Shown: positions 29,911 to 48,928 of the stretch, piece after piece
Layout: every line of letters starts with the position of its first letter
How positions within the stretch are numbered: the stretch's first letter is position 1
Assembly (NCBI GenBank): GCA_031409655.1
Contig: JANNXQ010000195.1
Location: 32,001-96,000, forward strand
Source of the DNA: Chthoniobacteraceae bacterium
GTDB taxonomy: Bacteria; Verrucomicrobiota; Verrucomicrobiia; Chthoniobacterales; Chthoniobacteraceae
Reading direction: 5' to 3'
Length of the DNA: 64,000 bases
The notes under the pieces: generated by a model
What the model was told of the DNA's origin: nothing
The model's input: only the letters and a program-made list of their open reading frames with translations
Databases searched by the model: none
Made by a program: the position numbers and the translations under genes

Positions 29911-29996
29911 GTGGTGGCGTCTATTGTTTGCAAGCAACCGCGGCAACTCGCGGCCCGCTGTGCGAAAAACCCGATAACTCCAAAAACAATCCGACA

Positions 29997-30602: not shown

Positions 30603-32315
30603 ATGATCGGGACCCCTCCAGTCTCTGTGAGTGCATCCAGCCAGGCTCTTCTGGCGTCCATGGTGGAGCGGCAACAGCTCTCCGCCATGGACGCCGAAGC
30701 GCTGGAGCGCGAGTGCGCGCTCGGCTTCCGGGCAGATACGGAAGAGGCCGTGCTGCGCTGGCTGGCCCAGGAGTACGGTCTCGGCTTCACCGCGCTGGAG
30801 GGCATCGAGCCAGATCGCGCGCTGCTCGCCAAATTCTCCGCGCGCATCCTGCTCAAGGAAGAGCTGCTCCCGCTCTCCGAGAAAGATGGCGTGGTCGAGG
30901 TGGCCGCGAGCCGGCTCTTCGCGACGCCAGGACTCGATAGTCTGCGCGCGGTTTCCGATCTGAAGTTTCAGCCGATCCTCGCGCCGAGCGAAGCGCTCCA
31001 GCGGGAGATCAAAAAGCACCTCGGCGTCGGCGCCGATACGCTCAATCTGCTCGAACAGGAGGAAGGCTTCCAAGTCGTCTCCGAAGATCGCGAAGATTCT
31101 GGCGATCTCGACAAAGCCGCGGAAGACGCGTCGATCATCCGTTTCGTCAACCAAGTGCTCGGCGACGCCATCTCGCTGCGGGCTTCGGATATTCACGTCG
31201 AGCCTTTCGAGCACGAGCTGCGCATCCGTTATCGCATCGACGGGCTTTTGCAGGAAGTGCCCGTGCCCACGCAGATCAAGCGCTTCCAGCCGGCGATCGT
31301 TTCGCGCATCAAAATCTTGAGCAATCTCGATATCGCGGAGAAGCGCGTGCCGCAGGACGGTCGCATCAAGATCCGCGTGAAAGCGACGGAGGTGGACATC
31401 CGCGTTTCGGTGATCCCGATGCTCCATGGCGAAGCGGTGGTGCTGCGTTTGCTCCGCCAGGAGGCTGGGGTGCTCGGCCTCGATAGTCTCGGGATGGCCG
31501 AGCGGGAGCGCGGGCTTTTCTCCCAAGTCCTCGAAATGCCGCACGGCATCGCGCTCGTCACTGGTCCCACCGGCAGCGGCAAGACGACCACGCTCTACAG
31601 CGCGCTCCATCAGATCAATGATGCGGTACGCAAGATCATCACCATCGAAGACCCGGTGGAATATCAGCTCAAGGGGATCAACCAGATCCAGGTCGCGGAA
31701 AAGGCCGGGCTGACTTTTGCCCGCGGACTCCGCGCGATTTTGCGCCACGACCCGGATGTCGTGCTCATCGGAGAAATTCGCGACCGCGAGACCGCGCAGA
31801 TCGCCGTGCAGGCATCGCTCACGGGGCACATGGTCTTTTCCACGCTCCACACCAATGACGCGCCCGGCGCGCTGACGCGGCTCGTGGACATGGGCGTGGA
31901 GCCGTATCTGGTCGCCTCCTCGCTCGAGGCCGTGATCGCGCAACGTCTCGTCCGTGTGCTCTGCCCGGATTGCAAAGAGCTGGATACCACCGCGCGGACC
32001 TCGGCGCTTCGCGAGCGCGTCGAAGCGCTGCGCTACGCGAATATCTACGCCGCGAAGGGTTGCCGCAGTTGCCGCATGACTGGCTACAGCGGACGCCGTG
32101 CGGTCTTCGAACTCATGACCATGAGCCCGACGATCCGCGAGATCCTGCTCCGCGGGGGTTCGAGCATTGAGATCAAAAACGCCGCCCGCCGCGAAGGAAT
32201 GCGCACGCTGCTCGAAGACGGCTGGCGGGTGGTGAAAGACGGCACCACCACGCCTTCCGAAGTGATGCGTGTCTCGAAGGACGAAGGCAGCGACGGCTTT
32301 GCCGTCGGAACATGA
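30603..32315 (+). CDS. gspE: Type II secretion ATPase GspE/PilB
   Basis: ASDIHVEP, PQDGR, GPTGSGKTTT, TIEDPVE, LRHDPD, GEIRD, TGH..STLHTND, CPDC..CRSC. Confidence 0.93.
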   Translation: MIGTPPVSVSASSQALLASMVERQQLSAMDAEALERECALGFRADTEEAVLRWLAQEYGLGFTALEGIEPDRALLAKFSARILLKEELLPLSEKDGVVEVAASRLFATPGLDSLRAVSDLKFQPILAPSEALQREIKKHLGVGADTLNLLEQEEGFQVVSEDREDSGDLDKAAEDASIIRFVNQVLGDAISLRASDIHVEPFEHELRIRYRIDGLLQEVPVPTQIKRFQPAIVSRIKILSNLDIAEKRVPQDGRIKIRVKATEVDIRVSVIPMLHGEAVVLRLLRQEAGVLGLDSLGMAERERGLFSQVLEMPHGIALVTGPTGSGKTTTLYSALHQINDAVRKIITIEDPVEYQLKGINQIQVAEKAGLTFARGLRAILRHDPDVVLIGEIRDRETAQIAVQASLTGHMVFSTLHTNDAPGALTRLVDMGVEPYLVASSLEAVIAQRLVRVLCPDCKELDTTARTSALRERVEALRYANIYAAKGCRSCRMTGYSGRRAVFELMTMSPTIREILLRGGSSIEIKNAARREGMRTLLEDGWRVVKDGTTTPSEVMRVSKDEGSDGFAVGT

Positions 32316-32563
32316 TCATGGACGCCACACCTTACATTCCATCGGGACCACTCCCGTCGTTCCGAGACTTCGCGCGCGCCGACGAAGCAGAAATCCGGGG
32401 AGCATCCGCGTCTCGCGTGTCGGTTTCGGCGTCTTGCCGGAACGAACTTCCCGATGAGTCCGCTCTGGCAGAAACGTCACTTGATGAAGAGACGGTGGCC
32501 TGTTCTGCGGGCGCGGATGCTCCCCGGAGTTCCGAGTCCGCACCTCAAGAGCCCGCCGAATAG
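32312..32563 (+). CDS. Possible small coupled ORF (83 aa), about half encoded by a REP-like element
   Basis: ATGA overlap with the gspE stop, ends 8 nt before gspF; no recognisable family. Confidence 0.3.
   Translation: MIMDATPYIPSGPLPSFRDFARADEAEIRGASASRVSVSASCRNELPDESALAETSLDEETVACSAGADAPRSSESAPQEPAE
32394..32528. repeat. REP-like palindromic element
   Basis: 17-bp perfect terminal inverted repeat TCCGGGGAGCATCCGCG / CGCGGATGCTCCCCGGA; left arm similar to 35967-36024. Confidence 0.85.
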
Positions 32564-32571
32564 TCCACCCG

Positions 32572-33816
32572 ATGGCCGTCTTCGAATACAAAGCAGTGCA
32601 GGCGAACGGCACGTCGATCCTCGGCACGATCGACGCCTCCGGTCGCCAGGATGCGGTGCGGATGATCGAAGAGCGGGGACTCACGCCGGTGCGCATCACC
32701 GAAAGCGTCGCGACTGCGAAGAACGGAGCGCGCGGCGCGAAGCCGACGGGCGCAGGCCAATTCGCCTGGCAGTCGAACCGCGTTCCCTTCGCCGCGCTCG
32801 AAGATTTCACCCGCTCCCTCTCCAGCCTGCTCTCCGCCAATGTTCCGCTGAGTCGCGCGCTTACCATCTTGTACAAAGAGACGTCGCATCCCGTCGCGGC
32901 CGTGAAGTGGCGCGAACTGCACGATCTCGTCATCGACGGGGTCCCGCTTGCGGAAGCGATGAACCGTTCGCCGGACGTCTTCCCGCGCGTCTATGTCGCG
33001 ATGGTCGAAGCGGGTGAGGCCGGCGGCTTTCTCGATGTGGTGCTCGCACAGATCGCCGACTTTCAAGCGCAGGAAAAAGAGATGCGCGCCAAGGTGATGG
33101 CCGCCCTGATGTATCCCGCCGTGCTGCTCTGCCTCGCCGTCGCGGTGCTCATCTTCCTCCTCGTCTTTTTCATCCCACGCTTTCAGACACTCTTCGCCGG
33201 CTTCGATGCGGCGCTGCCGGCGCTCACCCAGATCATCGTCGGGATCAGTAATTTTGTGCGCAGCTACGGCTTCTATTTGCTCGCGGCGATCGTGGCCGCG
33301 ATCTACTTCGGGCGCGCCTGGTTTGCGCGCGAAAGCAGTCGGCGGCTCTGGGAATCGTGGCTCCTGCGCACGCCGGTCGTCGGCCCCCTCATGGCGCAGA
33401 TCGCCATGGCGCGTTTTTGCCGGATGCTCGGCACGCTGCTTGGCGCCGGAGTCTCGCTGATCAGCGCACTTTCCGTCGCGCGCCGTTCGCTCGGCTACCA
33501 GACGCTCATCGACCTCGTCACGGATTCCACGGAGCGCGTGAAAAAAGGCGAGGCGCTCGGCGCGAGTCTGGCGGGATGCAAAGCGCTCTTTGGCGGCTCG
33601 ACGCTCGAGATGATCGCCGTCGCGGAGGAAAGCGGGCGCCTCGACAAGGAACTGGTGCGGCTCGCGGGCGTCACCGAGATCACCCTCGATCGTCAGCTCA
33701 AGACCGCCGTCGCGCTGGCCGAACCGCTCATGCTCTTCGTCATTGCCGGATTCATCGGCACGATCTTCGTCGGGATGGTCATCCCGATCTTTACCATTCA
33801 GGACTACATCAAGTGA
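32572..33816 (+). CDS. gspF: Type II secretion inner membrane platform GspF/PilC
   Basis: FEYKA, MVEAGEAGG.L, ALMYP, GTLLGAGV, EESGRL, EPL. Confidence 0.92.
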   Translation: MAVFEYKAVQANGTSILGTIDASGRQDAVRMIEERGLTPVRITESVATAKNGARGAKPTGAGQFAWQSNRVPFAALEDFTRSLSSLLSANVPLSRALTILYKETSHPVAAVKWRELHDLVIDGVPLAEAMNRSPDVFPRVYVAMVEAGEAGGFLDVVLAQIADFQAQEKEMRAKVMAALMYPAVLLCLAVAVLIFLLVFFIPRFQTLFAGFDAALPALTQIIVGISNFVRSYGFYLLAAIVAAIYFGRAWFARESSRRLWESWLLRTPVVGPLMAQIAMARFCRMLGTLLGAGVSLISALSVARRSLGYQTLIDLVTDSTERVKKGEALGASLAGCKALFGGSTLEMIAVAEESGRLDKELVRLAGVTEITLDRQLKTAVALAEPLMLFVIAGFIGTIFVGMVIPIFTIQDYIK

Positions 33817-33830
33817 TCACCTTTCCACTC

Positions 33831-34378
<548 letters not shown>

Positions 34379-34382
<4 letters not shown>

Positions 34383-34870
34383 CTGAGTCGCGCCGCACCT
34401 CCGCTTTCACGCTCGTCGAGCTCATCGTCGTCATGGCGTTGCTCGCGATCGTGCTGGCCTTGTCGGCGCCGTCGCTGGCGCGTTCGATGCGCCAGCGAAA
34501 CCTCGAAGCGGAAGCCGCGCGCTTCCTCGCCGCCACGGAGTATGGCCGCAATGAAGCCGTCTCGCAGGGCGTCCCGATGGTCCTGTGGATCGACGAAAAG
34601 ACGCGGCGCTTCGGCGTCGAGGCGCGCTCGGGATTCACCGGCGATCCGGCGCGCGCTCGGGAGTTCGAGTTGCATCCGGAAGTGGAGATCGAGACCGAGA
34701 AAGTGATCGCGCGGACGGCGAAGGTGCAGCCCATCGAATTCGCGCCCGATGGCGCGCCGGCCACGACGAACATCGAGGCGGTACAGCTCAAAGACCGTTT
34801 CGCGTCCGTCGTGACCATCGCCCAGACCACTGATGGTTGGGGTTACGAGATCCTGAAGGAGGTCCGATGA
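34379..34870 (+). CDS. gspH: Minor pseudopilin GspH/FimT-like
   Basis: SAFTLVELIVVMALL; ATGA overlap with gspG. Confidence 0.8.
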
Positions 34871-35247
34871 ACCGCCGCGAGCACGGCTTCACCTTCGTCG
34901 AGATTCTCGCGGCGTTGCTTTTCCTCGGGATCGTGATGCCAGTGGTGATCGGCGCGCTGCAGGTTGCGAATCGCGCGGCGGTGCTTTCCGAGCGCGCCGG
35001 GGTGGCGGTGCAGCTTGCGGAAAACAAGCTGGCAGAACTCCAACTCGGCGACGCCTGGGACTCGTCCTCCTCGACGGGAGAGTTCGGAGAGGATTGGCCG
35101 GGTTACCGTTGGGAACTCACGAAAGCGGATTGGGAAAACGGCGTCATGACGGAGCTGCAACTCGCGGTCCTCTTTAGTGTGCAGGGTCGCGAGCAGGACG
35201 TGCGGCTGAGTACCCTGGTCAGCGAATCGCTCTCGGAGGAACCATGA
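34867..35247 (+). CDS. gspI: Minor pseudopilin GspI-like
   Basis: HGFTFVEILAAL, LAENKLAEL; ATG 34867 overlapping the gspH stop. Confidence 0.8.
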   Translation: MNRREHGFTFVEILAALLFLGIVMPVVIGALQVANRAAVLSERAGVAVQLAENKLAELQLGDAWDSSSSTGEFGEDWPGYRWELTKADWENGVMTELQLAVLFSVQGREQDVRLSTLVSESLSEEP

Positions 35248-35903
35248 GACGCACCGCGTTCACGCTCCTGGAACTAATCATGGCCCTCGCGGCCTCGGCG
35301 GTCATTCTGGCCGCGATCTACGGCGTCTTTTCCCGCGCGGTGCATCTCCGCGATGCGGCCACGACCCGCGTCCGCGAAGCGCGCATCCGGGGCCACGCCG
35401 CGACGATGATTCGCGACGATCTGCGGAATGCGCTCATCTCGGGATCGACGACGGCGACCGCGCTCGGCTCGATGCTCACGGGATCGCCGGAGGGCAAGGA
35501 GTCGAGCTTCCCCGGCTACCTCGCTTTCACCACGACCACTGGGCGCGACGCGGATGAAACGCCGACGGCGGACGTGCAGCGGATCGAGTACTACATCGCG
35601 AATGATCCCGAAGCCGTGGATCGCAACTCGGGAATGCTCGTGCGGACAGTGGAACGCACGCTCCTCGCGCAGACTCCGGAGACGCCGCCTGAGACGCCGC
35701 TGCTCCATGGCGTTGAGAAGATGGAGGTCGAATTTTACGACGGCACCAGCTGGCAGAATGCGTGGGAGATCACGGAGACGGAGAAGACCCTGCCGGAAGC
35801 GGTGCGGGTGCGTCTTCAGCCCGCGACCAGCGCCCGCGGGGAACGCGTGTCACCGATCGAGATCGTCGTCCCGTGGACCACCCATTCGTGGATCGAGTCA
35901 TGA
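35244..35903 (+). CDS. gspJ: Minor pseudopilin GspJ-like
   Basis: AFTLLELIMAL, DLRNA, FYDGTSWQNAW, LPEAVRV. Confidence 0.82.
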   Translation: MRRTAFTLLELIMALAASAVILAAIYGVFSRAVHLRDAATTRVREARIRGHAATMIRDDLRNALISGSTTATALGSMLTGSPEGKESSFPGYLAFTTTTGRDADETPTADVQRIEYYIANDPEAVDRNSGMLVRTVERTLLAQTPETPPETPLLHGVEKMEVEFYDGTSWQNAWEITETEKTLPEAVRVRLQPATSARGERVSPIEIVVPWTTHSWIES

Positions 35904-37534
35904 GAATGCGCACTTCAGCGAATCTCGCGAATGGCCGTGAAAGGAAGAGTGCGTCGTGCGCGGAACTCCGGGGAGCATACGCGTCCCGCGTGTTGGTTTC
36001 GGCGTCCCGCCGAAACGGACTTCCCTCCGCGCTCTGCCAGATGGGGGTTCTCGCGGAGACCGTGCGCGGGTGGAAAGTTCGTCGCGGCGGGACGCCGCGA
36101 CCAACACGCGAGACGCGTATGCTCCCCGGAGTTCCGCGCCCCACGCCCCCTCTGGTCCGAGCCTCCGTGCTCATCGTCGTTCTTTGGGCGACGCTCGGGT
36201 TGGTCAGCGTGGCGCTTCTTTTCGGACATTCCATGACGATGACTTATCGCGGTGCGGACAATGAACTCGCCGGACGCCAGGCCGCGCAGGCGATCGACGG
36301 AGCCGCGCGTTACGCCGAGACGCTGCTGAAAAATGCCGTGATCCCCGGTGTCCTTCCGGAAGCCGCCGAATATCTCAGCGATACGATCCCGGTGGGTGAG
36401 GCGACCTTCTACATGATCGGACGCAGCCTGGATCCGGGCAATGGAACGACGCGCTCCTTCGGGCTCATCGACGAGTCCGGGAAGATCGACTTGAACGTCG
36501 ATGCCACGGCTCAGGATCAAGCCAAGGCAGTCGCCGACCTCAACGCGATGCTCAAGCAACTGCCGGGGATGACGGACGAACTGGCGGATGCAATCAAGGA
36601 CTGGCAGGACGCCGACGAAGACGTCTCCGAGTCTGGTGCGGAAACCGAGACTTACTCGCGATTCACTCCCGCTTACTCCTGCAAGAATGGCCCATTCGAA
36701 TCCATCGAGGAACTCGCGCTGCTCAACGGGGCGACGCGCGAAATCCTCTACGGCGAAGACACGAATCTGAATGGCGTGCTCGACGACAATGAGAACGATG
36801 GCGATGCCTCCGAGCCAGCGGACAACGCGGACGGCAAACTCGACCTCGGAATTTTCGAATACGTTACCGTCTTCAACCGTGAATCGAACAAGTACACCAA
36901 TAGCAGTGGGACGAGCGTCGCGCGGATCGACATCAGGGACATCCCGCAAGCGACCCAGGATCTCACTACTTTGATCGACGAGAAACTCGGCAGCGGGCGC
37001 GCGCAACGCATCATCTCATTGGTGGGTGCGCAGCCGCCCTTGGATAGCGTGCTGGAGTTTTACCTCCGCTGCAAAGGGAGCGCGGGCGTGCTTGCGGAAG
37101 ATGAGTTTGGTCTGCTGGTCGATGCCCTCACCACGACGACCGGGGAATATCGATCCGGGCTCATCAATGTGAACACTGCGAGTGAGGCCGTGCTCACTTG
37201 CCTTCCAGGGATTGGCGACAAGGCGGCGGATGTTGTTTCCAAACGGCTGAGTCGGGTCACGCAGGATACAAATATCGCGTGGATCGTCGAGGTCATCGGG
37301 GATCCGGGCGCTAAACTCGCGGGGCCGCACATCACCGGATACTCTTCGCAAGTCACGGCCGACATCGCCGCCGTCGGACGGAAGGGGCGCGGCTATCGTC
37401 GTGAGAAGGTGGTCATCGACCAGAGCACGGGGACGCCGCGGATCGTCTATCGGCGGAATCTCGCGCCGCTCGGGTGGGCGCTGGGCAGCGAAATCCGCGA
37501 GGAACTCGCGCAACTCAAGGAGCAGGCGCAATGA
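35900..37534 (+). CDS. gspK: Minor pseudopilin GspK-like with a REP element in the leader (alternative start 36119)
   Basis: RASVLIVVLW, DESGKIDLN, AIKDWQDAD, KNGPFESIEEL, INVNTA, LPGIG; ATGA overlap with gspJ. Confidence 0.85.
   Translation: MRMRTSANLANGRERKSASCAELRGAYASRVLVSASRRNGLPSALCQMGVLAETVRGWKVRRGGTPRPTRETRMLPGVPRPTPPLVRASVLIVVLWATLGLVSVALLFGHSMTMTYRGADNELAGRQAAQAIDGAARYAETLLKNAVIPGVLPEAAEYLSDTIPVGEATFYMIGRSLDPGNGTTRSFGLIDESGKIDLNVDATAQDQAKAVADLNAMLKQLPGMTDELADAIKDWQDADEDVSESGAETETYSRFTPAYSCKNGPFESIEELALLNGATREILYGEDTNLNGVLDDNENDGDASEPADNADGKLDLGIFEYVTVFNRESNKYTNSSGTSVARIDIRDIPQATQDLTTLIDEKLGSGRAQRIISLVGAQPPLDSVLEFYLRCKGSAGVLAEDEFGLLVDALTTTTGEYRSGLINVNTASEAVLTCLPGIGDKAADVVSKRLSRVTQDTNIAWIVEVIGDPGAKLAGPHITGYSSQVTADIAAVGRKGRGYRREKVVIDQSTGTPRIVYRRNLAPLGWALGSEIREELAQLKEQAQ
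35958..36139. repeat. REP-like palindromic element (long inverted arms), in-frame in the gspK leader
   Basis: Left arm GCGCGGAACTCCGGGGAGCATACGCGTCCCGCGTGTTGGTTTCGGCGTCCCGCCG... is nearly the reverse complement of the right arm ending ...ATGCTCCCCGGAGTTCCGCGC. Confidence 0.9.
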
Positions 37535-38943
37535 ACTTCTCGCTCGAAGATTTGAAGAAGCGTCTGCAAGTGCGTTCGGTGCTCGCCTTGAGCATCGAGT
37601 CCGGGCGCATCGCGGTCGCCGTCGTGCGCCATGATGCCGGCCGCCAGCGCGTGTTGCGTTCCTTTGCTCTCTCGACGGGCGCGGACGGGCTGCTCGCTGA
37701 TCCGGAAAAGGCGGGGCGTGATCTAGCCGCGCATCTCGACACGGCTGGCGTGAAGGAAAGGCGCAGCGTCGTCTGCATTCCAGCGAGTTGGGCACTCATC
37801 GCGACCACCGACGTGCCCGCGATGGCGGAGGACGAATTGCGCGGCTACCTCGAACTGCGGGCGGAGCGCGAGTTCCCGATTCCCGTGGCCGATCTGCGGA
37901 TCGCGCACTGTGGCTACGCGCTGCCGGATGGCGCGCAACGCGCGACCGTCGCCGGCTTGCCCGCGAAGCGCATGGAAGCCGTGGAGCGTTTCCTCGCGGC
38001 AGCGGGTTGTCGTGCTGCCTCCGTGTCTCTGGGACTCGATGGCTGCGTGCCGCGCGAACCCGCCGAGGCGGCGCTGCACTTCATCGCGAATGGGACGCAT
38101 GTCGATCTCGTGATCGCCGCCGGCGGCGGCATTGCGGCGGTGCGCACCCTACCCGGGGCTGGGGGAGCGAGCGCGCTGCCCTTCGATGCGGAAGGCTTTT
38201 CGCGGGAAGTCCGCATCACCCTTGGGCGTCTGCCAGAAGCGGTCCGCCAGCAGGTGCGCGAGGCCCGTTTCGGCGGCACGCCCGCGACGGCCGAGGAACT
38301 CTGCATCGAGATCCGCCAGCAGCTCCGGCGCATGGGCATCGACAGCCGGCTCGAGCGCCCGGAGCCGGCCGACGCAGATCAACCCGGTGCGGCGATCGAA
38401 GCCGCGGGCCAATTTTTCCGGCACGCACCTGCAGCCTTCGAATTCCTCGCGCCGCAAGTCAGCCGCTGGCAGACGGTCTTTCGCCAGTTTGACGATCGCC
38501 GTCGTCGCTGGGTCGTCGCGGCGCTGATCGCGGCGATCGTTCTCCCGGTGGTTGTCTATTTCATCCGCTCGCGCATCGAGAGCAGCCGGGCGGCGGCGTG
38601 GCGCGGGATGAGCGCAAATGTCGCGGAACTCGAGGAGATCCAAGGGCGCATCCGGCAGTTCCGCCCGTGGTTTGAGCCAGCGCCGCAAGCTTTGCAGGCG
38701 ATCGAAAGTGTCATCTCGGCATTTCCTGAAGGCGGCGAAGTCTGGGCGAAGAGCGTGCAACTCAGTGACGTGAATAAGGTGACGTGCAGCGGCTTTGCGA
38801 AAAACCAGCCGGCGCTCATGGCCACCCTCGATCGGCTCCGGAAAGGACCCAGCGCCAGCGAGGTGCAGGTGCAGCAAGTGCGCGGCGAAAATCCGATCCA
38901 GTTTTCTTTCACCTACAAATGGACTCCCCGCGATGCAAAGTAA
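37531..38943 (+). CDS. GspL / PilM-PilN-like assembly protein
   Basis: Actin-like cytoplasmic region (VLALSIE), single TM (WVVAALIAAIVLPVVVYF), coiled coil, PilN-like ferredoxin domain; position in operon. Confidence 0.7.
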   Translation: MNFSLEDLKKRLQVRSVLALSIESGRIAVAVVRHDAGRQRVLRSFALSTGADGLLADPEKAGRDLAAHLDTAGVKERRSVVCIPASWALIATTDVPAMAEDELRGYLELRAEREFPIPVADLRIAHCGYALPDGAQRATVAGLPAKRMEAVERFLAAAGCRAASVSLGLDGCVPREPAEAALHFIANGTHVDLVIAAGGGIAAVRTLPGAGGASALPFDAEGFSREVRITLGRLPEAVRQQVREARFGGTPATAEELCIEIRQQLRRMGIDSRLERPEPADADQPGAAIEAAGQFFRHAPAAFEFLAPQVSRWQTVFRQFDDRRRRWVVAALIAAIVLPVVVYFIRSRIESSRAAAWRGMSANVAELEEIQGRIRQFRPWFEPAPQALQAIESVISAFPEGGEVWAKSVQLSDVNKVTCSGFAKNQPALMATLDRLRKGPSASEVQVQQVRGENPIQFSFTYKWTPRDAK

Positions 38944-39475
38944 GAACCGCGAGACATTCCTAAAGATCGGCGTTGGCGTGGTGGTCGGCCTCTTCCTGCT
39001 CGATCGAGTGGTGCTCGGGCCGGGCATCGAGAGCTGGAAGGCGCAGGGTGAGCGGCTCGCGGAACTCAAAGTGAAAGTGGAGCGCGGCCGGCAATTACTG
39101 GAGCGCGAGAAGTCGATTCGCGGACGTTGGAACGAAATGCAGCGCACCGATTTGCCCGAGGATGATTCGCTGGCGGAGAACGAAGTCTTCACTTCCATCG
39201 CGCGCTGGGCCAGCGCGAGCCGCGTGGGCATCACGAATCTCACGCCGCATCGCGGAAATCACGATGGTAGCTACGACACCTTTGAATGGCGCGCCTCGGC
39301 AACCGGCGATCAGGCCGCACTCGGCCGCTTGATCTATGAGATCGAAAGTGACGGGCTGCCAGTTCGGGTCGAAGAGTGTGAGATGAACACGCGCGACACC
39401 AAAGGCCAGCAGCTTGGGCTCTCCCTGCGGTTCAGTGCCGTGCGCATTAATGAAGCGAAAAGGAGTGCGCGATGA
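38933..39475 (+). CDS. GspM / PilO-like protein
   Basis: MQSKNRE + TM + coiled coil + ferredoxin-like C-terminus; position in operon. Confidence 0.65.
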   Translation: MQSKNRETFLKIGVGVVVGLFLLDRVVLGPGIESWKAQGERLAELKVKVERGRQLLEREKSIRGRWNEMQRTDLPEDDSLAENEVFTSIARWASASRVGITNLTPHRGNHDGSYDTFEWRASATGDQAALGRLIYEIESDGLPVRVEECEMNTRDTKGQQLGLSLRFSAVRINEAKRSAR

Positions 39476-40038
39476 AGAAGCTGATCGCCCTCTTCCTGCT
39501 GCTCGCGCCGACGTTCACTCAAGCGGCGGAAAAGCCCGCGGGCTACGACACCTTTCAGCTCATCCGCACACGCCCGATCTTCGATCCAAATCGCAAGCCG
39601 CCGAAGAAGGAGTCCGACCAGCCGCGCGCGGTGACCCCGTCCCGGCCGAAGTCGGTGCATCTCGCGCTCACGGGGACGATGGTCACGGAGGCGCGGAAGC
39701 TCGCGTTTTTCACCGGCTCGCGTTCCGAGTTTAATAAGATCGTCAGCGTGGGGGAGAAGCTCGGGGACTACACCGTCGCGACGATTACGGCCAGCGAGGT
39801 GAAATTGGACCAGGCGGGCAAGCCGACCGTGGTCACCATGGGCAAGCGTCTGCAGCTCGAAGGCACGGAAGCAGACGCCGTGGAACCTGAGCCCGCGCCC
39901 GCTGCACCGGCGGGCACCAGCGCCACGCCCGCGGCTGATGGCAGTGCCGCGCCCGCCGCCAGTCCACCGAGCGGCGGGAGCCCGAGCGACATTTTGAAAC
40001 GCATGATGGAACGCCGCGCCAAGGAGATAAAAAAATGA
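39472..40038 (+). CDS. GspC / PilP-like protein
   Basis: Signal, RPIFDP, LTGTM...AFF, VGEKLGDYTV..I...V.L (HR-domain-like); directly upstream of the secretin. Confidence 0.6.
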   Translation: MKKLIALFLLLAPTFTQAAEKPAGYDTFQLIRTRPIFDPNRKPPKKESDQPRAVTPSRPKSVHLALTGTMVTEARKLAFFTGSRSEFNKIVSVGEKLGDYTVATITASEVKLDQAGKPTVVTMGKRLQLEGTEADAVEPEPAPAAPAGTSATPAADGSAAPAASPPSGGSPSDILKRMMERRAKEIKK

Positions 40039-41684
40039 AAGACCCTCTAGCCATGAAACAAATCCACCCACACCGCTATCATGGATCGGAAGGCCGCACC
40101 CTATTTCTCCTCCTCCTCACGGCGCTGCTCGCCTGGACGCAGCCCGTCCAAGCGCAGGCGCCGCCGTTGCCGACTGCCCCAGACCCGAAGCCAAGTTTTG
40201 AAGTCGATCCACTCCGGGCACCTTCGAAGGCGATGCCCGTCCGCTCGGCGGTGGGTGCCGCGGCGGTGACCCCGCCGCAACCGAAGCAGGAGATCATGCT
40301 CAACTTCCAGGGAGCCTCGCTCAGCGACGTGCTCAACTATCTGAGTGAGGCGGCGGGTTTCGTCATCATCCAGGAGGCGCCGCTGACTGGCACGGTGAAC
40401 ATCGTCAGCCGTCAGCCCATCGGTCCGGAGGAGGCGGTCGATCTCCTCAATACGGTGCTCGTGGAGAAAGGCTTCATCGCCATCCGCAACGGCCGCATTT
40501 TGAAAATCGTGAACCGCAAAGATGCGCAGAAGCGCGACCTGCCAGTGCAGACCGGGAGCGACCCGGAGAAGATCCCGCGCAAGGATGAGATGGTGACGCA
40601 GATCCTGCCGCTGCGTTTCGGCGACGCGGCGAAGCTCGTGGAAAATCTCAAGCCGCTGTTACCCGATACCGCGACCATTAGCTCGAACGAAGGCAGTAAC
40701 GCGATCTTGATGACTGATACGCAGACCAATATCCGGCGTATCGCCGAGATCATCAAAGCGATCGACACCTCAGTAGCCAGCATCTCGACGATCAAGGTCT
40801 ATCCGCTGCAGTTTGCAAATGCGAAGGAGCTGGCCACGGTGGTGACGCAGCTCTTCCAGACGAATGCGACGAGCGGCAGCAGCCGGAGCCGCGACCGCGG
40901 GAGTAGTGGATTTCCGTTTCCCTTTCCTGGCAGTGATCGTGGCGGGGACCGAGGTGGCTCCAGTGGCGGGGACAGTGAAGCCCGCCAGGCGGGGTCGCGG
41001 GTCCTCGCGGTCGCGGACGATCAGAGTAATTCACTCATCGTCAGTGCGCCGGAGGATGTGATCCCGTCGATCACCGAGATCGTGACGCGGATCGACACGA
41101 GCATCACGGCAGTGACGGAGACGCGCATCTTCACTTTGAAACATGCCGATGCCACCGAGTTGGCGGAGATCCTGACCAATCTGTACAGCGACACTGGCAG
41201 CCAAAGTAATCGCAGCAGCAGCTCCAGTCGGGGCGGCAGAGATAGCGGCTCCAGTGGCGGGCCCGGTTTTCCGTTTGGAATGTTTGGTGGCGGATCGTCT
41301 TCGTCGCGATCGAGTTCCAGTGGCGACCAGAGCCAGCGTTCGCTCCAAGAGTCGAAGGTCGTGGCCGTGGGTGATCCGCGCACGAACTCCGTGCTCGTGA
41401 TCGCCGCGCGCGACACCCTCATGGAGATCGCCGAGATGATCGGGCGGCTCGATGCCACCGATGCCAAGAAGCAGCGCGTCTTCGTGCATTCCCTCGAACA
41501 CGCCGACGCCGAGAGCGTCGCCAATGTCCTGCGCGGCATGCTCGGCGATCAGACGGCGACGCAGAGTTCAGCGCAGAGCGGGGCCGCGCGACTGACCGAG
41601 CGCAGCGCGAACGGTGCGGCCATGGAATCGTCCTCCCAAGGAGTCGGCAGCGCGGGCGGAGGGCGCTCCTCCGGCGGACGATGA
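40035..41684 (+). CDS. gspD: Secretin N-terminal half (N0 + three N repeats + first half of last N domain)
   Basis: Signal peptide; LNFQGASL (N0); PLRFGDA, PLQFANA, LKHADA, LEHADA repeats; no secretin barrel. Confidence 0.85.
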   Translation: MKDPLAMKQIHPHRYHGSEGRTLFLLLLTALLAWTQPVQAQAPPLPTAPDPKPSFEVDPLRAPSKAMPVRSAVGAAAVTPPQPKQEIMLNFQGASLSDVLNYLSEAAGFVIIQEAPLTGTVNIVSRQPIGPEEAVDLLNTVLVEKGFIAIRNGRILKIVNRKDAQKRDLPVQTGSDPEKIPRKDEMVTQILPLRFGDAAKLVENLKPLLPDTATISSNEGSNAILMTDTQTNIRRIAEIIKAIDTSVASISTIKVYPLQFANAKELATVVTQLFQTNATSGSSRSRDRGSSGFPFPFPGSDRGGDRGGSSGGDSEARQAGSRVLAVADDQSNSLIVSAPEDVIPSITEIVTRIDTSITAVTETRIFTLKHADATELAEILTNLYSDTGSQSNRSSSSSRGGRDSGSSGGPGFPFGMFGGGSSSSRSSSSGDQSQRSLQESKVVAVGDPRTNSVLVIAARDTLMEIAEMIGRLDATDAKKQRVFVHSLEHADAESVANVLRGMLGDQTATQSSAQSGAARLTERSANGAAMESSSQGVGSAGGGRSSGGR

Positions 41685-43120
41685 ATCCAAACCTGATCAC
41701 TCCCATGCCCAAAAATTTCTCTCTCATTGCCGCTCTGTGCTTTCTGCACGTCTTCGCGCTCCTCGCTCCGCAGCTCAGCGCGCAAGTGAGCCGCGCCGGC
41801 AGTTCCGGGCGCACGACTTCGAGCTCACGGAGCAGTACGGGACGCTCGGTTTCATCCTCTGGCAGTCGCAGCAGCACCGGACAGCGCCAGTATCGCAGTA
41901 ATACCGAGCTCGGCGACGCGATGATCACCATCGATCCCGAGACGCGTTCGCTCGTCATCGTGACCGATGAAGACACGCACAACGAGATGTTGAACGTGAT
42001 CAAGACGCTCGATAAGCCCAAGCCGCAGGTGCTCATCAAAGTCGTCTTTCTGGAAGTAACGTATAACAAGGGTTCCGACATCGGCGTCGAAGGCACCTAC
42101 ACCTTCAATCTTGAAGGAGGGAAGACTGCGACCACGGGAACGCGCACCACCACGAATACCCAGGTCTCCGGCACGAAAACGACGACCACCTCGCTCGCGG
42201 AAACGCTGGGCTCCGCTGCCGCGCTCGGGCGGGCGGTCACCGGTGGGAGTGGATTCAATATTCCCGTCGCGGGCGTGAACGCGACGGGACTCATCGTGCG
42301 GGCGATCGGTGACGATTTCTCCGCGACCGTCCGGGCGCTTTCGACGCAGGGTAAGGTCGAGGTGCTCTCGCGGCCTTCCATTATGGCGCGGAATAATCAG
42401 GAGGCCGTCATTGTGGTCGGTTCCGAGATCCCATTCATCACCAACAGCCGGATCGACAATACCGGCAATACCATCAACACCGTCACCTATGACGATATTG
42501 GCATTATCCTCCGTGTTACTCCCTTCATTACTTCCGAAGGCACCGTGGAGATGATCGTCGCACCGGAGATTTCCTCGCTCACCGATCAGACCGTGCCGAT
42601 CTCCAATACGGTGAACTCTCCGGTGATCTCGAAGCGCTCTGCGGAAACCGTCGTGGTCACGCCGAATGGCAAGACCGTGGTCATCGGTGGCCTCATGCAG
42701 ACCCAGCGGATCGATTCCGTGCAAAAAATTCCGATCCTCGGTGATATTCCGATTCTCGGTTTCCCTTTCCGCCGCACCATCAAGAGCGACGAGAAGAAGG
42801 AACTCATGATTTTCCTCACGCCCACCATCGTCAGCGACCCCCGCGAGGTCGATGCGGTGAATGTGGACGAACTCGGAAAGACGGAACTCGTGGATCGGGC
42901 GTTTTCGGAAAAGGAAAAGTCGAAATTCCTCCAAGGCCTGCCCCTCATGCCGGAACCGGAATATGAGCCGGAGATAACGCCGGCTCCGCGAGCCACTGCC
43001 GTGCGGCGGACCTCCCCGAGTAAGTTGCCGACGGTGAAAGCGAGCAAGCCTGCTCCCGCTTCCGAGCCTGACGTGCGCAAGCCCGCGGCTGTCATTCGCG
43101 CCAAAGCCACGCCATTCTAA
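41681..43120 (+). CDS. gspD: Secretin C-terminal half (second half of last N domain + secretin barrel)
   Basis: Own signal peptide; IDPETRSLVI, LDKPKPQVLIK, LSRPSI..NNQEA.IVVG, GIILRVTP, VIGGL, KIPILGDIPILG. Confidence 0.9.
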   Translation: MNPNLITPMPKNFSLIAALCFLHVFALLAPQLSAQVSRAGSSGRTTSSSRSSTGRSVSSSGSRSSTGQRQYRSNTELGDAMITIDPETRSLVIVTDEDTHNEMLNVIKTLDKPKPQVLIKVVFLEVTYNKGSDIGVEGTYTFNLEGGKTATTGTRTTTNTQVSGTKTTTTSLAETLGSAAALGRAVTGGSGFNIPVAGVNATGLIVRAIGDDFSATVRALSTQGKVEVLSRPSIMARNNQEAVIVVGSEIPFITNSRIDNTGNTINTVTYDDIGIILRVTPFITSEGTVEMIVAPEISSLTDQTVPISNTVNSPVISKRSAETVVVTPNGKTVVIGGLMQTQRIDSVQKIPILGDIPILGFPFRRTIKSDEKKELMIFLTPTIVSDPREVDAVNVDELGKTELVDRAFSEKEKSKFLQGLPLMPEPEYEPEITPAPRATAVRRTSPSKLPTVKASKPAPASEPDVRKPAAVIRAKATPF

Positions 43121-43140
43121 AGCCCTAAACCAACGATCCT

Positions 43141-43803
43141 ATGAATACGAATTCGTCTCTTTCCCGGCGTCATTTCCTCTCAGGTGTCGGCGGTGCTGCC
43201 GCACTTTTTGCGGTGCCCGGCGCGTTTGCGGAGGCACTCGTCCAGACTCCGCGTCAAACCGAGGGTCCTTTCTATCCCGACAAGCTTCCGCTCGATACGG
43301 ACAATGACCTGCTGATTCTAAACGATGCTCTCACCTCCGCGGTTGGTGAGGTGGCTTACTTGAGTGGGCGGATTCTCAGTCCGAGCGGTGAACCGGTGCG
43401 CAACGCGGTGGTCGAGATCTGGCAGTGCGACGCGAGCGGCGTCTATATTCACAGCAAGTCCGGCGGGTCGGCCGCGAAGCGGGACGCGAGTTTTCAGGGC
43501 TTCGGTCGCTTCGTCACGGGGAGCACAGGGGAGTATCTTTTCCGCACGATCAAGCCCGTGCCTTACGTCCCGCGCACTCCGCATATTCACTTCAAAGTCA
43601 AAGCGCGGGGGAAAGAGCTGCTCACGACGCAATGCTATATCAAAGGTCATCCGGGTAATGAAAAAGATGGCCTCTGGAAGAGGACGGGTGACGAGAAGAT
43701 GCGGAGCTTGGTGACGGTGGACTTCGCCCCGCTGCCAGGAGCGAAGGCTGGAGAACTTGCCGCGCGGTTCGATCTGGTCCTTGGCGTGACGCCGGAGGCT
43801 TGA
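43141..43803 (+). CDS. Tat-exported intradiol ring-cleavage dioxygenase family protein
   Basis: SRRHFL Tat motif; EGPFY, EIWQCDASGVY, TIKPVPY..RTPHIH (Tyr/Tyr/His/His ligands present). Confidence 0.88.
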   Translation: MNTNSSLSRRHFLSGVGGAAALFAVPGAFAEALVQTPRQTEGPFYPDKLPLDTDNDLLILNDALTSAVGEVAYLSGRILSPSGEPVRNAVVEIWQCDASGVYIHSKSGGSAAKRDASFQGFGRFVTGSTGEYLFRTIKPVPYVPRTPHIHFKVKARGKELLTTQCYIKGHPGNEKDGLWKRTGDEKMRSLVTVDFAPLPGAKAGELAARFDLVLGVTPEA

Positions 43804-43855
43804 ACGGCACGGAAGGCAGCCCCTGAGCGGCGCTAGTCCGGAAGTAGTCAGGCTG

Positions 43856-46800
43856 CTAGCCGCGCGTCGCGAGTTTTGCGCCAGCCTGTTCGAGCCAAGC
43901 CGCGTCGGGCATGGCGTAGGGGCGGAAGGTTTCGAGGGTGCCTTCCTGTTCGTTGGCGAGCAGGGCGCGGTGCAGGCCGAGGGTGGCGGCTTTCGGCGTA
44001 TCGATGAGGCTCGCGGAGTCGTTGGCGCTCATTTGGAAGATGACCCGCATTTCAAATTCGCTCAGCGCCTTCCGGCTCATTGCGCGGTTTACGTTGTTAA
44101 ACGTATCGACGGTCGCGAAGAGATGCAGCCCGTGCGCGCTGCCTTCGGTGATGAGTTCGTTGAACTGGGCGCCGGGGTTGCCGGTGCTCTCTTCGTCGCC
44201 GGACGAAAAGCTGAAGTCATCTTCATGCCGGAGCTTCTTGAACTTCTGCAGGCCATGGATGAACAGGAAGACCGCAGGCTCGTTGCGGGAGGATTCTCCG
44301 GCGGCGTTGCGAGTCTTCAGATCCGCGGCGAGTCCACCCATCACCTCGGCAGCATCGTGACCCCGCGCCAGCGTCAGGCGGCCGGGAAGGGCGGCGGCGA
44401 GTTGGTCGATAAAGGTGGCTTCGGGCGTCTCGGGATTCGCACCGTGGAGCAGGATGAACCTCGCGGTCCCGGCGGGATACTGCGCGGCGAGTGCGACGAT
44501 GGAGACGCCGATCAAAGTCAGCGCGTCGTCGTCGCGCTGACCGACAAGGAGCAGGTGATTGCCGCTCTGCCGCTGAAAGACCGCTTCGGTCGGACCTTTG
44601 ATGGAATTGGGCGCGCCGAGCCAGCAGCGACCCACCGCGGGCGCGGTAGTCGGTTTCGATTCGAGGGCCGCGCGCAAGCGTTCATTCTCGCGGATGTCGG
44701 CCGGTGAATTACCTTCGAAAACGATCGGGCCTGGGTGCTGATCGTGATGCTGCTCGGCGAGTGCGCGCACCTTGTCGAGCCACTGATCGCGCTCTTCATC
44801 CGGCAGCCACACGACCTGGAAGGGGCTGTTCCCCTCGACCGCACCGGAGGCGTCGTTGTAGATGCCTTCGCCCGGTCGCGAGAGGAGGCGCGGCGCGGAA
44901 TTATTGTCATCCATGATGAGATAGGCGTCGGCTTCGTTGCATTGCAGGGCCACGCGGATGGCCATCTGACCGAGCGTTGCGCGGGCGAGCGTGTAAGCAC
45001 CGCCCAGGGTCTGCGAGCCGAGGATCACATGGATGCCAAAGGCGCGGCCCTGACGCACGATGCGATCGAAGAGCAGCGCGGCGCCTTGCGAGACGTTGTC
45101 GTCCTCAACGAAGAACTCCTGGAATTCATCGATCATCAGCAGCGAGCGCGGCATCGGTTCGGCCCCACCCTCGCGCTTGTAGCCCGCGAGATCCTGCACG
45201 CCGAGTTTGCGGAAAATGTCTCCGCGCCGTTTCAACTCATCGTCCACGCGTTGCAGCACACTGAGCGCAAATTCCCGGTCGCTTTCAATGGCCACGACGC
45301 GCGCATGCGGAAGGCGTTTCGTGGCGTAGCACTTAAATTCCACGCCTTTCTTAAAGTCGATGAGGTAAAACTCCACCTGCTCGGGACTGCACGCGAGGGC
45401 GAGGTTCGTGATGATGACGTGGAAGAGCGTGGATTTTCCTGAGCCCGTCTTGCCGGCGAAAAGCGCATGCTGGCGCGTGCCTTTGCCGATCGCGAGATAC
45501 TGCAATTTCGTCGCCCCGGTGCGGCCCACGGCGATGCGCAGTTCGGTGGTCGTGTCGTGCGTCCACATCTCCTCGGGCTTCGGCGCGATCTGGAGGAAAG
45601 GCACCTCGACGCGATTCGAGTCGATGCTGGCTTTGCCGATCTTATGGACGAGCGCAACGGCGAGATCGGCGTCGGGAGGGGCATCGAGCGCGGCCGTGGC
45701 CGTGATCGCGGAGTGCGTGGTCTGGACCACGAGCGCGTCGCCCTGACGGCGGAGGCAGACGCTGCTCTTGCGGAGTTCAGCGGCGACGAAACCATCCGGC
45801 ATCGACTGCCGCGGATCCCAATGGATGAGCGTGAAGACGCCGCAGCGCGGACCGCTGGCGGCGATGCTTTGCAGACGTTTCACCGCGGACTCGCTGAAGC
45901 TTGCGGGGAAATCCGCGACGACGAGAAAGTGATATTTCTCCGCCACGCTGCCTGCCTTGGCATTGTACTCCGTAATCGTGGCGAACTCATTGCGGAGATA
46001 CATCTGGATGACTTTCTCGATGTGTTCATTGAGGTCGTCGAGCCGCTCTTCGATTTGCTCGCGCTGCGTCCAGATGCGGCGGTTGATGAGGCTTTCCTCG
46101 TGATCCCCGAGATGCATGAGTCCGGCGAAGTTTTGGCCGAGCCCGACGGGATCGATGATCGTGAAGCTGAGCTTCCCCGGCGGCGTGGTGGCGAGCAGGC
46201 GGAGGATGGAGTTGTTGATCGTCCCGACGACCGAGGGCTCGCTCGAGTCGTTCGTTTCAAAGAGGAGCGAACCTTCTGCCGGGAAAGAGAGGGCGAGGGG
46301 AATGGAGACGCGGGGCCCGCCGGGCAGGCCGAGGCGGGGATCCTTGGGGCCGGGCGAAGCGGCCTGCGTGAGGTCGAGTTCCAGCGCGCCAAATTTCACC
46401 GCGGGAGCGAAAGCCGTCGGTGCCTTCCATGCTTCCACCATCTCCGAATCCCACGCTGGGAAGCGCCCCTCGGTCCCCGCTTTTATCTCCTCGATCGCGG
46501 CATGCACCGGGAGGATCTCGCGCTGCCAGTCCGCTTCGAGCGCGCCCCAGCGGGCGGCTTCATCGGCAGCAAAGGCCGCGAGGTCCGCCGCGTGCGCTTC
46601 GCTGAGCGTCGTGCGCCGGGTGTCGCTGGCGCTCTGGATCTCGCCGAGCGCCGCGGTGCGTCCCTCCGCGAGCGTCGTGATTTTCGGCGCGAGCATCTGT
46701 TCATTGCGGGCAAAGGCACCGGGGAGTTGCTGCCGGAGTTTTTCCCGCCGAGCGGCGGCAAATTCACGCTCGAGGTCATCGGCGCGATTCCACTCCTCCT

Positions 46801-47761
46801 GGATTCCCTGCGCGAGGGCATCGTGCTCCTCCTGGAGGCGCTGCCGCTCCGCTGCGTGATGCGCCGTGGCCTCCGCGGCACTCGCATCATGCGCCCGCAC
46901 GGCCATCCCGAGCGCACCCGCCAGCTCCGAAGCCGTGGCTTTCGACTGACTGAGCCCGATCCGGTGAATGAGGACGACGAGGATGATCGCAACGAGCGTC
47001 GCTCCACCAGCGATCATCGGCGCGTCGGGATTTGCCCGCAGGACGAGCCAGACGATCAACCCCACGACGGCCAGGATCGGGAGCACCGCCGGGAGCGGCG
47101 CGTAGCTAAAGAGACGCGGCAGGGCGAAGCGGCGGAACTGGCCCAGCTTCTCCTCCGCGACCGCGAGCTGACTCTTGAGTTCAGTGAGTGAAGCCTGGTG
47201 ATCGCCCGTGCCGATGGGCCCGCCCGCCGGCGCCGTGCGTTCACTGCGCAGCATCTTCTGAAAGGAACTGCAGCCGCCAAAAGCATTCCACGCGCGCTGC
47301 TCGAGCTTGCCATGCGCCGTGCGCTGCTCGCCGAGCCGCGCGACGAATTCCGCAAAATTCCCGTCCTCCGCCTTCAAGTCCACCGGCAGCGCCTTTTCCG
47401 CGCGGAAGTGCCGCATTTGCAGCCCGGTGAGGTACTTCTCCTTTTCATGCTGCGCCCGGGTCTTGAGCTTTTGCATGCTGTTCGTGTGCTTCTGCTGGAT
47501 GCCCATCCGCCGTTCCTCGTGAAAGGCCCGGACGCGCGTTTCCTCCGCCGTCACGCCCTCCTCGGTCTCGGCGACCTGCGCCGCGAGCCGGGTCTCGAGG
47601 GCCGCGAGCGCCTCCCGGTTTCGCCGATTCAGCGCGGAACGGCGGATGTTCAGGTCGCGCGTCAGTTGCTCCTCGCGTTGGGCAAACTCCGCCGCGGTCA
47701 GTTTCAGTTTTCCGAAGAGGTCGAGACTCCGGGTGACTCGTAGGTCGATGTCGCTATTCAC
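43856..47761 (-). CDS. FtsK/SpoIIIE-family ATPase, EccC/EssC-like type VII secretion coupling protein
   Basis: Coiled coil, two TMs, coiled coil, degenerate ATPase fold, intact domain (HALFAGKTGSGKS, YLIDFKKG, IDEFQ, GRAFGIH), degenerate C-terminal domain; GTG 47761. Confidence 0.88.
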   Translation of the reverse strand: MNSDIDLRVTRSLDLFGKLKLTAAEFAQREEQLTRDLNIRRSALNRRNREALAALETRLAAQVAETEEGVTAEETRVRAFHEERRMGIQQKHTNSMQKLKTRAQHEKEKYLTGLQMRHFRAEKALPVDLKAEDGNFAEFVARLGEQRTAHGKLEQRAWNAFGGCSSFQKMLRSERTAPAGGPIGTGDHQASLTELKSQLAVAEEKLGQFRRFALPRLFSYAPLPAVLPILAVVGLIVWLVLRANPDAPMIAGGATLVAIILVVLIHRIGLSQSKATASELAGALGMAVRAHDASAAEATAHHAAERQRLQEEHDALAQGIQEEWNRADDLEREFAAARREKLRQQLPGAFARNEQMLAPKITTLAEGRTAALGEIQSASDTRRTTLSEAHAADLAAFAADEAARWGALEADWQREILPVHAAIEEIKAGTEGRFPAWDSEMVEAWKAPTAFAPAVKFGALELDLTQAASPGPKDPRLGLPGGPRVSIPLALSFPAEGSLLFETNDSSEPSVVGTINNSILRLLATTPPGKLSFTIIDPVGLGQNFAGLMHLGDHEESLINRRIWTQREQIEERLDDLNEHIEKVIQMYLRNEFATITEYNAKAGSVAEKYHFLVVADFPASFSESAVKRLQSIAASGPRCGVFTLIHWDPRQSMPDGFVAAELRKSSVCLRRQGDALVVQTTHSAITATAALDAPPDADLAVALVHKIGKASIDSNRVEVPFLQIAPKPEEMWTHDTTTELRIAVGRTGATKLQYLAIGKGTRQHALFAGKTGSGKSTLFHVIITNLALACSPEQVEFYLIDFKKGVEFKCYATKRLPHARVVAIESDREFALSVLQRVDDELKRRGDIFRKLGVQDLAGYKREGGAEPMPRSLLMIDEFQEFFVEDDNVSQGAALLFDRIVRQGRAFGIHVILGSQTLGGAYTLARATLGQMAIRVALQCNEADAYLIMDDNNSAPRLLSRPGEGIYNDASGAVEGNSPFQVVWLPDEERDQWLDKVRALAEQHHDQHPGPIVFEGNSPADIRENERLRAALESKPTTAPAVGRCWLGAPNSIKGPTEAVFQRQSGNHLLLVGQRDDDALTLIGVSIVALAAQYPAGTARFILLHGANPETPEATFIDQLAAALPGRLTLARGHDAAEVMGGLAADLKTRNAAGESSRNEPAVFLFIHGLQKFKKLRHEDDFSFSSGDEESTGNPGAQFNELITEGSAHGLHLFATVDTFNNVNRAMSRKALSEFEMRVIFQMSANDSASLIDTPKAATLGLHRALLANEQEGTLETFRPYAMPDAAWLEQAGAKLATRG

Positions 47762-47963
47762 AATCGATGCGGACCTTTCGCAAAAGCCCATCCAGTTCCT
47801 CGATCACCGCCGCCGCGCGGGCCAGGTGATGCGGGAGATCCTCCAGATAGGTGTGTTCAAATTCCCGAGCCTTCACGTCCCGCCACGATTCCTTCGTCTG
47901 CTCCCACTCGGCCTTCAGCTCCTTCGCCGCCTGCAGCAGATTCGACGCGCTCGCCCGGCTCAT
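47754..47963 (-). CDS. Small WXG100-like protein (69 aa, W-R-D)
   Basis: Helical hairpin with central ESWRDVKAREF; overlaps both neighbours. Confidence 0.7.
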   Translation of the reverse strand: MSRASASNLLQAAKELKAEWEQTKESWRDVKAREFEHTYLEDLPHHLARAAAVIEELDGLLRKVRIDCE

Positions 47964-48472
47964 GATCCGGCGGCCTCCGGCGGGGGCCCCGCGAGCTTCG
48001 GCGCCGTCTCCGCGTAAGCTTCCAGCGTCTTCTGCGCCTGCACCAGAAAGGCGATTCCCTTCGGCAGATCGAAATCGAGCACGAAGCGCAAACTCTCGAT
48101 TCGTTTCAGCAGCGGCTCCGCAGAGGCGTCAAAATCCCGGGTCCACTTCTTCACCAGGCGCATCTTTTTCTCCGCGTGATCCAGCGCCTCCTTCGCCTTG
48201 CGCACCGCATTCTGCTGCGCCGAGATGTTGTCACGCAGATTGGAAAGTTTCGCACTTAGCAGCTCCTGCTGCGCCGCATCCAGGAGCTTCCGCTGCTTCC
48301 GGATTTCCTGCTCCCAGTGGGTCCGCCGATCATTCTGCAGCCACCCGCGCGTCCGCCGCACCTCGTCGCCCACCTCATCCACGCTGCGATGCGCGTGACC
48401 GAGAAAGATGATGAGATTTGCCCGGAACGCCTCCAGCGCGTCGAGCGACGTGACATGCGCCTGCGGTGCCAT
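47960..48472 (-). CDS. Coiled-coil protein, extended WXG100-like (170 aa)
   Basis: All-helical; termini resemble those of the adjacent WXG100 protein. Confidence 0.7.
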   Translation of the reverse strand: MAPQAHVTSLDALEAFRANLIIFLGHAHRSVDEVGDEVRRTRGWLQNDRRTHWEQEIRKQRKLLDAAQQELLSAKLSNLRDNISAQQNAVRKAKEALDHAEKKMRLVKKWTRDFDASAEPLLKRIESLRFVLDFDLPKGIAFLVQAQKTLEAYAETAPKLAGPPPEAAGS

Positions 48473-48475
48473 GGC

Positions 48476-48748
48476 CTAGCGCTGATCCAGATATTCCTCG
48501 ATGCGTTGCGCCTTGCGCAGGAGGTAGGGTGTGTGTTTTTCCGACACCTCGACGAATTTTTTCAGCACCTTCATCGTCGTCAGGAATTCCTCCGCAAACT
48601 TCTCCGCATCCTGATCCTGCCAGGTGCTCCCGAGCGCCGCAAAGCGCGCCTGCAAAGCCCCCGCCCGGACCTGCACGTCGTCATTGAAGCGCTTCAGCTC
48701 TTTGGCGAAGCGCCGCACTTCCTCCGGGTCCATGATCGCTTGAGCCAT
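48476..48748 (-). CDS. WXG100 family type VII secretion target (90 aa, W-Q-D)
   Basis: ATG 48748: MAQAIMDPEEVRRFA..LGSTWQDQDAEKF..LLRKAQRIEEYL; size and central W typical of WXG100. Confidence 0.85.
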   Translation of the reverse strand: MAQAIMDPEEVRRFAKELKRFNDDVQVRAGALQARFAALGSTWQDQDAEKFAEEFLTTMKVLKKFVEVSEKHTPYLLRKAQRIEEYLDQR

Positions 48749-48928
48749 AGGGAATATTGCTGGGGTTTTAGGATTCGCTCCAAGGCTACTCGCAGCGTGA
48801 GCGCCCGGGATCTTTGCAGGTGGGGAATCTCTATGAACTCCCTGCGAAACGCAACGCGCGAGAGCCGCGAGCGGATTGTTGGTTGTCGAAAGGGCAAGAC
48901 CGGCGATTTTCCCGCCCTTGGAAATTGC

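Follow-up and report, generated by a model that had tools for sequence, protein, structure and literature searches.

A type II secretin encoded by two genes and cut within its N3 domain in a Chthoniobacteraceae bacterium and its relatives

In a 64,000 nt stretch of DNA from a Chthoniobacteraceae bacterium (GCA_031409655.1, contig JANNXQ010000195.1, 32,001-96,000, forward strand; hereafter 'the window', whose positions serve as coordinates), the secretin GspD of a type II secretion system (T2SS) is encoded by two adjacent genes. They are open reading frames (ORFs) on the + strand at 40035-41684 (gene 1, gspD-N, 549 aa) and 41681-43120 (gene 2, gspD-C, 479 aa). The split, which lies in the loop of the N3 domain, is genuine and inherited. 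The two-gene secretin is conserved and probably functional, and N3 is likely to be rebuilt in trans from the separate chains, with a remodelled interface, as judged from the sequences. Numbers preceded by L or P are labels of related loci and proteins.

Gene 1 was delimited by its ORF, by Pfam and by the GspD model TIGR02517, and the sequence AAGGAG is found 8 nt 5' of its start. It begins with a predicted Sec signal peptide (40035-40154), followed by an N0 domain (40299-40508; PF21305 at residues 89-158, E 4e-10) and three complete N repeats. The last of these (41121-41453; PF03958 at residues 363-473) has its own Gly/Ser loop in the structure model. Then comes an orphan first strand and helix of N3 (41472-41543). 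This final conserved block aligns with E. coli K12 GspD (5wq7) at strand 1 and the helix of its last N repeat, just before the loop. Pfam reports the GspD N0 domain and four Secretin_N stretches in all. The gene ends with a Ser/Gly tail containing an LxxR motif (41592-41603), a predicted helix in the model, whose Arg is invariant and whose Leu is present in at least 90% of 70 aligned rows.

Gene 2 supplies the remainder. A predicted Sec signal peptide (41705-41782) is followed by a Ser/Arg/Gly arm and by a QYxSN...GDA motif (41882-41917; conservation 0.68, Tyr and Gly in at least 90%), which immediately precedes the second strand of N3. The rest of this domain (strands 2 and 3 and helix 2; 41918-42016) was delimited by the model and by Pfam, which matched positions 30-69 alone of the Secretin_N profile PF03958 (residues 77-116). 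Next is the secretin beta-barrel domain (42017-42832; PF00263, E 1e-47, Pfam residues 219-384), for which the top Foldseek matches were the T2SS secretins 5zdh, 6hcg and 5w68. The C-terminus is Pro/Ala-rich and was modelled as a helix and a low-complexity tail. By a sequence heuristic, both N-termini consist of a hydrophobic stretch ending in a likely cleavage site between Ala and Gln. TIGR02517 is the best match for both ORFs, each scoring below the cut-off (232 and 253 bits, cut-off 351). The two products are collinear and non-overlapping on the single-chain relative P0004, gene 1 reaching residue 393 and gene 2 starting at about 465-480.

A first-pass annotation made from the letters of the window had described this arrangement, and the ORFs, the Pfam matches and the 5wq7 alignment agree with it for both genes. 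It had also pointed to an overlap of the genes by ATGA, which is indeed present at 41681-41684. The overlap is not general and may be incidental, because a second Met of gene 2 at 41705, directly 5' of the signal-like stretch, fits the family pattern as the likely start, and because the nearest Met lies 3-335 nt past the gene 1 stop in 76 relatives.

Species-representative genomes were scanned for relatives of gene 2, and the 80 best of the 117 recovered were analysed further; record titles include Chthoniobacterales, Limisphaerales, Verrucomicrobiales and Kiritimatiellae, among others. A separate upstream ORF ending in the orphan strand, the helix and a low-complexity tail is present in 77 of the 80 loci, and none of the 80 shows a fusion of gene 1 with gene 2. 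Two of the remaining three are truncated by the end of their contig. In the third, L027, the barrel is joined in frame to GspE (2757-4976, at a short shared motif), which was set aside as a probable assembly mis-join. Gene order and adjacency are constant in all 77 loci that hold both genes. The two genes stand in relative frames 0, 1 and 2 in 25, 31 and 21 of these loci, respectively. This spread over the three frames excludes a frameshift or readthrough common to the loci, a programmed one included. A Met with a hydrophobic stretch after it stands ahead of the half domain in 78 of the 80 loci, and a small-residue-Gln site is present in 77, both by a heuristic call; export as a lipoprotein was discarded as an explanation, the lipobox-like pattern being found in just three of the 80.

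The sequence at the junction itself is spanned by contigs from other runs of one study, X2 (41379-42174, no gaps) and X3 (41379-41866, no differences), neither of which contains an indel there. The first-pass view that the second signal peptide argues against a sequencing frameshift is thus borne out, and the split point it singled out proves to be conserved in the relatives. Single-chain relatives are at most 46% identical among the best 120 of 245 matches of 840-2395 aa, and most of the named ones belong to Planctomycetota. Among the 3434 matches shorter than 840 aa, the best 120 all measure 405-582 aa. One feature of the earlier description did not generalize, namely a vestibule that is one repeat longer than usual: the split loci L031, L076, L077 and L084 keep to the canonical number of repeats. 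Three complete repeats were found in 59 of the 72 uncut last gene 1 ORFs, and the repeat number varies in single-chain relatives too.

The case for rebuilding N3 in trans is built on the complementary halves, on the conservation and hydrophobic pattern of the orphan half, and on breaks recurring at one topological site. Column conservation of the orphan half is 0.71 (70 rows); folded parts score 0.61-0.68 and loops 0.28-0.32. The hydrophobic pattern of the two halves follows that of intact N domains (r 0.83 and 0.79). When each product was modelled alone with AlphaFold2, the half-N3 of gene 2 formed two strands and a helix, with the QYxSN motif unstructured (pLDDT <50), and in gene 1 the N3 helix was formed while the orphan strand stayed unpaired. 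A passage of a paper on type III secretion system (T3SS) secretins calls N3 essential for secretin oligomerization and describes an insertion, variable and in part disordered, that separates helix 1 of the domain from strand 2 (PMC6155069); the position of that insertion is the break site found here.

Covariation between the halves was analysed in several ways. In intact domains, the most strongly coupled column pair combines Asn with Ala/Ser in 998 of 1016 cases and Arg/Lys with Pro/Val in 57 of 77. In the split form, the column on gene 2 is occupied by Arg/Lys, and that on gene 1 mostly by Val/Pro (in at least 31 of 49). The pair has therefore shifted in both genes to the alternative state of intact domains, possibly by one inherited event. 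A residue-independent mutual-information test was borderline for cognate halves (p 0.056), with non-cognate controls at 0.47 and 0.54 and positive controls at 0.010-0.17. Kinship confounds this test as well as the coupling-energy test described below.

Several points weigh against the reconstruction of N3. In the mutual-information test, one of the three single-chain control subsamples failed too (p 0.17). Coupling energies derived from about 1,000 intact N repeats gave native gene pairs no edge over shuffled ones (z -1.6 to -1.8, all couplings, n 48-49), and the intact-domain controls did prefer native pairs (z 4.6 for the penultimate repeat and, at the same n, z 3.2-6.5 for subsamples of single-chain N3). 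Helix 2 of gene 2 has lost a usually hydrophobic position (0.9 to 0.1), which indicates that the N3 interface is at least remodelled. The signal peptides were called by a hydrophobicity heuristic. Finally, the seen part of a study of the mitochondrial T2SS reports that a GspD without any N domain oligomerized in liposomes (10.1101/790865), so assembly of the barrel is possible without N3. The in-trans proposal made in the first-pass annotation is plausible in view of the complementary halves, the conservation of the orphan half and the recurrent breaks, and one of the two covariation tests lends it no support.

The following course of events is a proposal that we consider probable. The break lies between helix 1 and strand 2 of N3, where single-chain relatives have a long Gly/Ser loop. 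Each chain would be exported separately by its predicted Sec signal peptide, cut between Ala and Gln. By analogy with known secretins, the gene 2 product would build the ring-shaped outer-membrane barrel and supply strands 2 and 3 and helix 2 of N3. The gene 1 product would then insert its last strand and helix in the periplasm, completing each N3 and closing the ring that serves as the base for secretin assembly. The N0-N2 vestibule would hang below the pore, with N0 meeting the inner-membrane platform, and the LxxR and QYxSN motifs on the loop stumps may help to latch the chains. The outcome would be a stable two-chain form of the ordinary T2SS channel.

Among other explanations, the one that survives best is that gene 2 encodes a self-sufficient minimal pore, in which QYxSN or a neighbouring subunit covers the half-N3, while gene 1 docks otherwise, as a linker to the inner-membrane platform. 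Such a linker role has been proposed for RhcC1, according to the portion of PMC3459982 consulted. The QYxSN motif is well conserved and placed where a substitute element could lie, the coupling energies show no preference for native pairs, and the N-less mitochondrial GspD oligomerizes. However, a minimal pore leaves the full conservation and hydrophobic pattern of the orphan strand and helix unexplained. Moreover, QYxSN is unstructured in the model of gene 2 alone, the locus L128 is split at the same site without this motif, and a break in N2 in five of the loci (see below) would require the same trick again. We consider this explanation unlikely.

Less probable still, and in our opinion quite improbable, is that the halves complement reversibly or below a 1:1 ratio, the vestibule being a removable or exchangeable module that controls assembly or activity of the pore. 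Separate starts (with gaps of 3-335 nt) would permit unequal amounts, the interface looks remodelled, and the repeat number of gene 1 varies. Against this stand the invariable order and adjacency of the genes in the 77 loci and the failure of a tblastn search to find an alternative gene 1 paralogue in the genome, where one distant N-domain match is part of another secretin on C149. The genome contains three other, distant secretin barrels. A complemented ring would more probably be stable than detachable, the property that the first-pass annotation ascribed to the vestibule. A sequencing error, a pseudogene or bridging into one chain by frameshifting or readthrough is a hardly credible explanation of the break: although assembly faults exist in some loci (an in-frame stop in L021, frameshifts in L023, L064 and L073, the join in L027), all three frames, the signal peptide between the halves, contigs X2 and X3, the distance of the single-chain relatives and the lengths of the shorter matches given above speak against it.

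The split subfamily is patchily distributed. Four of 301 genomes of the phylum match at E <=2e-122, the next match being at 8e-60. In the window's family, a match at 1e-90 is found in 37 of 121 genomes (own genome counted in both cases). In a quick tree of 118 rows, with heuristic labels, subsampled single chains and 17 fragments and 7 truncated rows excluded, 59 of 60 split-type rows fall on one side of a branch with SH-aLRT 100, where there is no single-chain member. The sole split-type row outside this main clade is P0326, which prompted a scan of metagenomes. The 80 loci classified there comprise 50 single-chain, eight truncated and nine uninformative ones, six split ones (L128, L129, L156-L158 and L160), a split-type one at a contig edge (L159), one frameshift (L184, at first taken for a split) and five distant long ORFs of 525-784 aa (L173, L174, L179, L180 and L190), which are not split forms.

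L128 (649-3560) shows the C-like ORF, gene 1 and gene 2 in the same order as in the window, with a GTGA overlap; L129 is a near-copy of it. The barrel of L128 most closely resembles those of single chains (68% to L136). In a barrel-only tree of 46 rows (3 dropped), a single clade of all split forms was rejected (approximately unbiased test, p-AU 0.011), under a simple LG+G4 model and with P0326 chosen after the first tree. These sequence comparisons suggest that the N3 break arose at least twice, the break in L128, L129 and P0326, among single-chain Planctomycetota-like relatives, being likely an independent origin; all three lack the QYxSN motif.

Five of the 80 loci of the genome scan (L053, L054, L060, L067 and L072), which form one clade of the tree, are interrupted once more, in the N2 loop that follows helix 1. 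Here a stop codon is followed by a gap of 43-54 nt, a third signal-like start in relative frame 0 or 1 and then the remainder of N2, within T2SS operons; in L053, the three-gene secretin region spans 3928-5818. We tentatively suggest that the loop after helix 1 of an N repeat may be a natural fission point, severed independently on three or more occasions (in N3 of the Verrucomicrobiota-centred clade, in N3 of Planctomycetota-like single chains and in N2 of the sub-clade), with a signal peptide gained each time. The secretin would then consist of two or three chains, its ring domains would fold only when separately exported fragments meet, and complementation could act as a checkpoint of pore assembly.

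Two further observations concern the relatives. L056, L062 and L077 are recorded as Akkermansia muciniphila, and L056 clusters in the tree with sequences from other Verrucomicrobiota metagenome-assembled genomes. The relatives also include giant one-chain secretins (P0277, P0296, P0297 and others), which measure 3,400-5,500 aa and contain many matched repeats.

Compared with single-chain GspD (TIGR02517; 5zdh, 6hcg, 5wq7, 5wq8, 5wln), the two-gene form shares the order of N0, N repeats and barrel, the T2SS operon and the best sequence and fold matches. It differs by its two genes cut within N3, by the second signal peptide and, usually, by one additional N repeat. The barrel (gene 2) and the gsp operon expected for GspD are present, N0 and N1-N3 are provided only by both products together, and in place of a single polypeptide with an intact N3 there are two ORFs, each below the TIGR02517 cut-off. 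The closest unsplit relatives found are GspD proteins of the Planctomycetota class Phycisphaerae (for example P0014, P0024 from Humisphaera borealis, and P0004; up to 46% identity to gene 2). These are one chain with a continuous loop, which in many of them is Gly-rich and 80-100 aa long at the break site.

Secretins divided between polypeptides are already known. As far as the consulted parts of the publications go, the mitochondrial T2SS distributes its secretin over several polypeptides (GspD, GspDL, GspDN1-3), of which GspDN2 represents the C-terminal and GspDN3 the N-terminal half of a single N domain (10.1101/790865; PMC10128026), so that the idea of half domains is not unprecedented. 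That system is eukaryotic, N0 is missing, the halves are free-standing small proteins and the barrel has no N-domain part, whereas here N0 is in gene 1, half of N3 is on gene 2 and the operon is bacterial. In rhizobial T3SS, an N-terminal gene and a barrel gene (RhcC1 and RhcC2) share the secretin function (sections of PMC3459982 and PMC3574062). These two parts do not share an origin (RhcC2, which has a BON domain, derives from Tad) and are encoded by non-adjacent genes, unlike the fission of one gene inside a domain described here; a profile search found no BON domain in either product, and the context is T2SS, not T3SS. In the openly accessible literature, we found no paper on a bacterial GspD cut within N3; PMC5148204, in its consulted part, mentions a T2SS and no secretin.

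Genes 1 and 2 form the 3' end of a T2SS operon on the + strand. Upstream (30603-40038, +) are gspE, F, G, H, I, J, K, an L-like ORF, M and a C-like ORF, assigned through the Pfam families T2SSE, F, G, GspH, T2SSI, J, K and M_b. The L-like (37531-38940) and C-like (39472-40038) ORFs have no Pfam match and were named by their position in the operon. In 53 loci for which 11 kb were examined, the C-, M- and L-like neighbours are present in 52, 53 and 53, respectively. A scan of 39800-44000 for sigma-70 promoters and terminators remained at chance level (one promoter-like site, 0.6 expected; four terminator-like sites, 3.5 expected). An ORF of 222 aa (29928-30596, +) with a signal-like start and a Gly-rich middle overlaps the operon start region just before gspE; it has no Pfam match under 0.03 and is possibly an assembly helper.

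Further upstream, two large proteins with DUF5122 beta-propellers and Calx-beta domains (23457-29729, -) are transcribed away from the T2SS operon. They are possibly surface proteins or T2SS substrates, the latter role being a guess. Two genes past the secretin of this diderm bacterium, on its downstream side, is a type VII-like (WXG100) module (43856-48748, -) made up of a WXG100 protein (48479-48748), an ORF of 170 aa with no match in Pfam and an FtsK/SpoIIIE ATPase of 1311 aa. A single open frame at 48317-51673 (+) combines a nuclease-like part of metallo-beta-lactamase fold with an ATP-dependent DNA ligase.

N3 has been described as the foundation of secretin oligomerization (in a section of PMC6155069), and a natural cut through it makes pore formation and vestibule attachment genetically separable. 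Whether a barrel with half an N3 assembles, and whether completion of N3 acts as a trigger, become testable questions. The cut also marks a site in secretins that tolerates chain breaks. Annotation would read such loci as truncated gspD genes, and the two-gene secretin offers a tractable counterpart, in bacteria, to the mitochondrial T2SS with its unexplained half-N-domain proteins.

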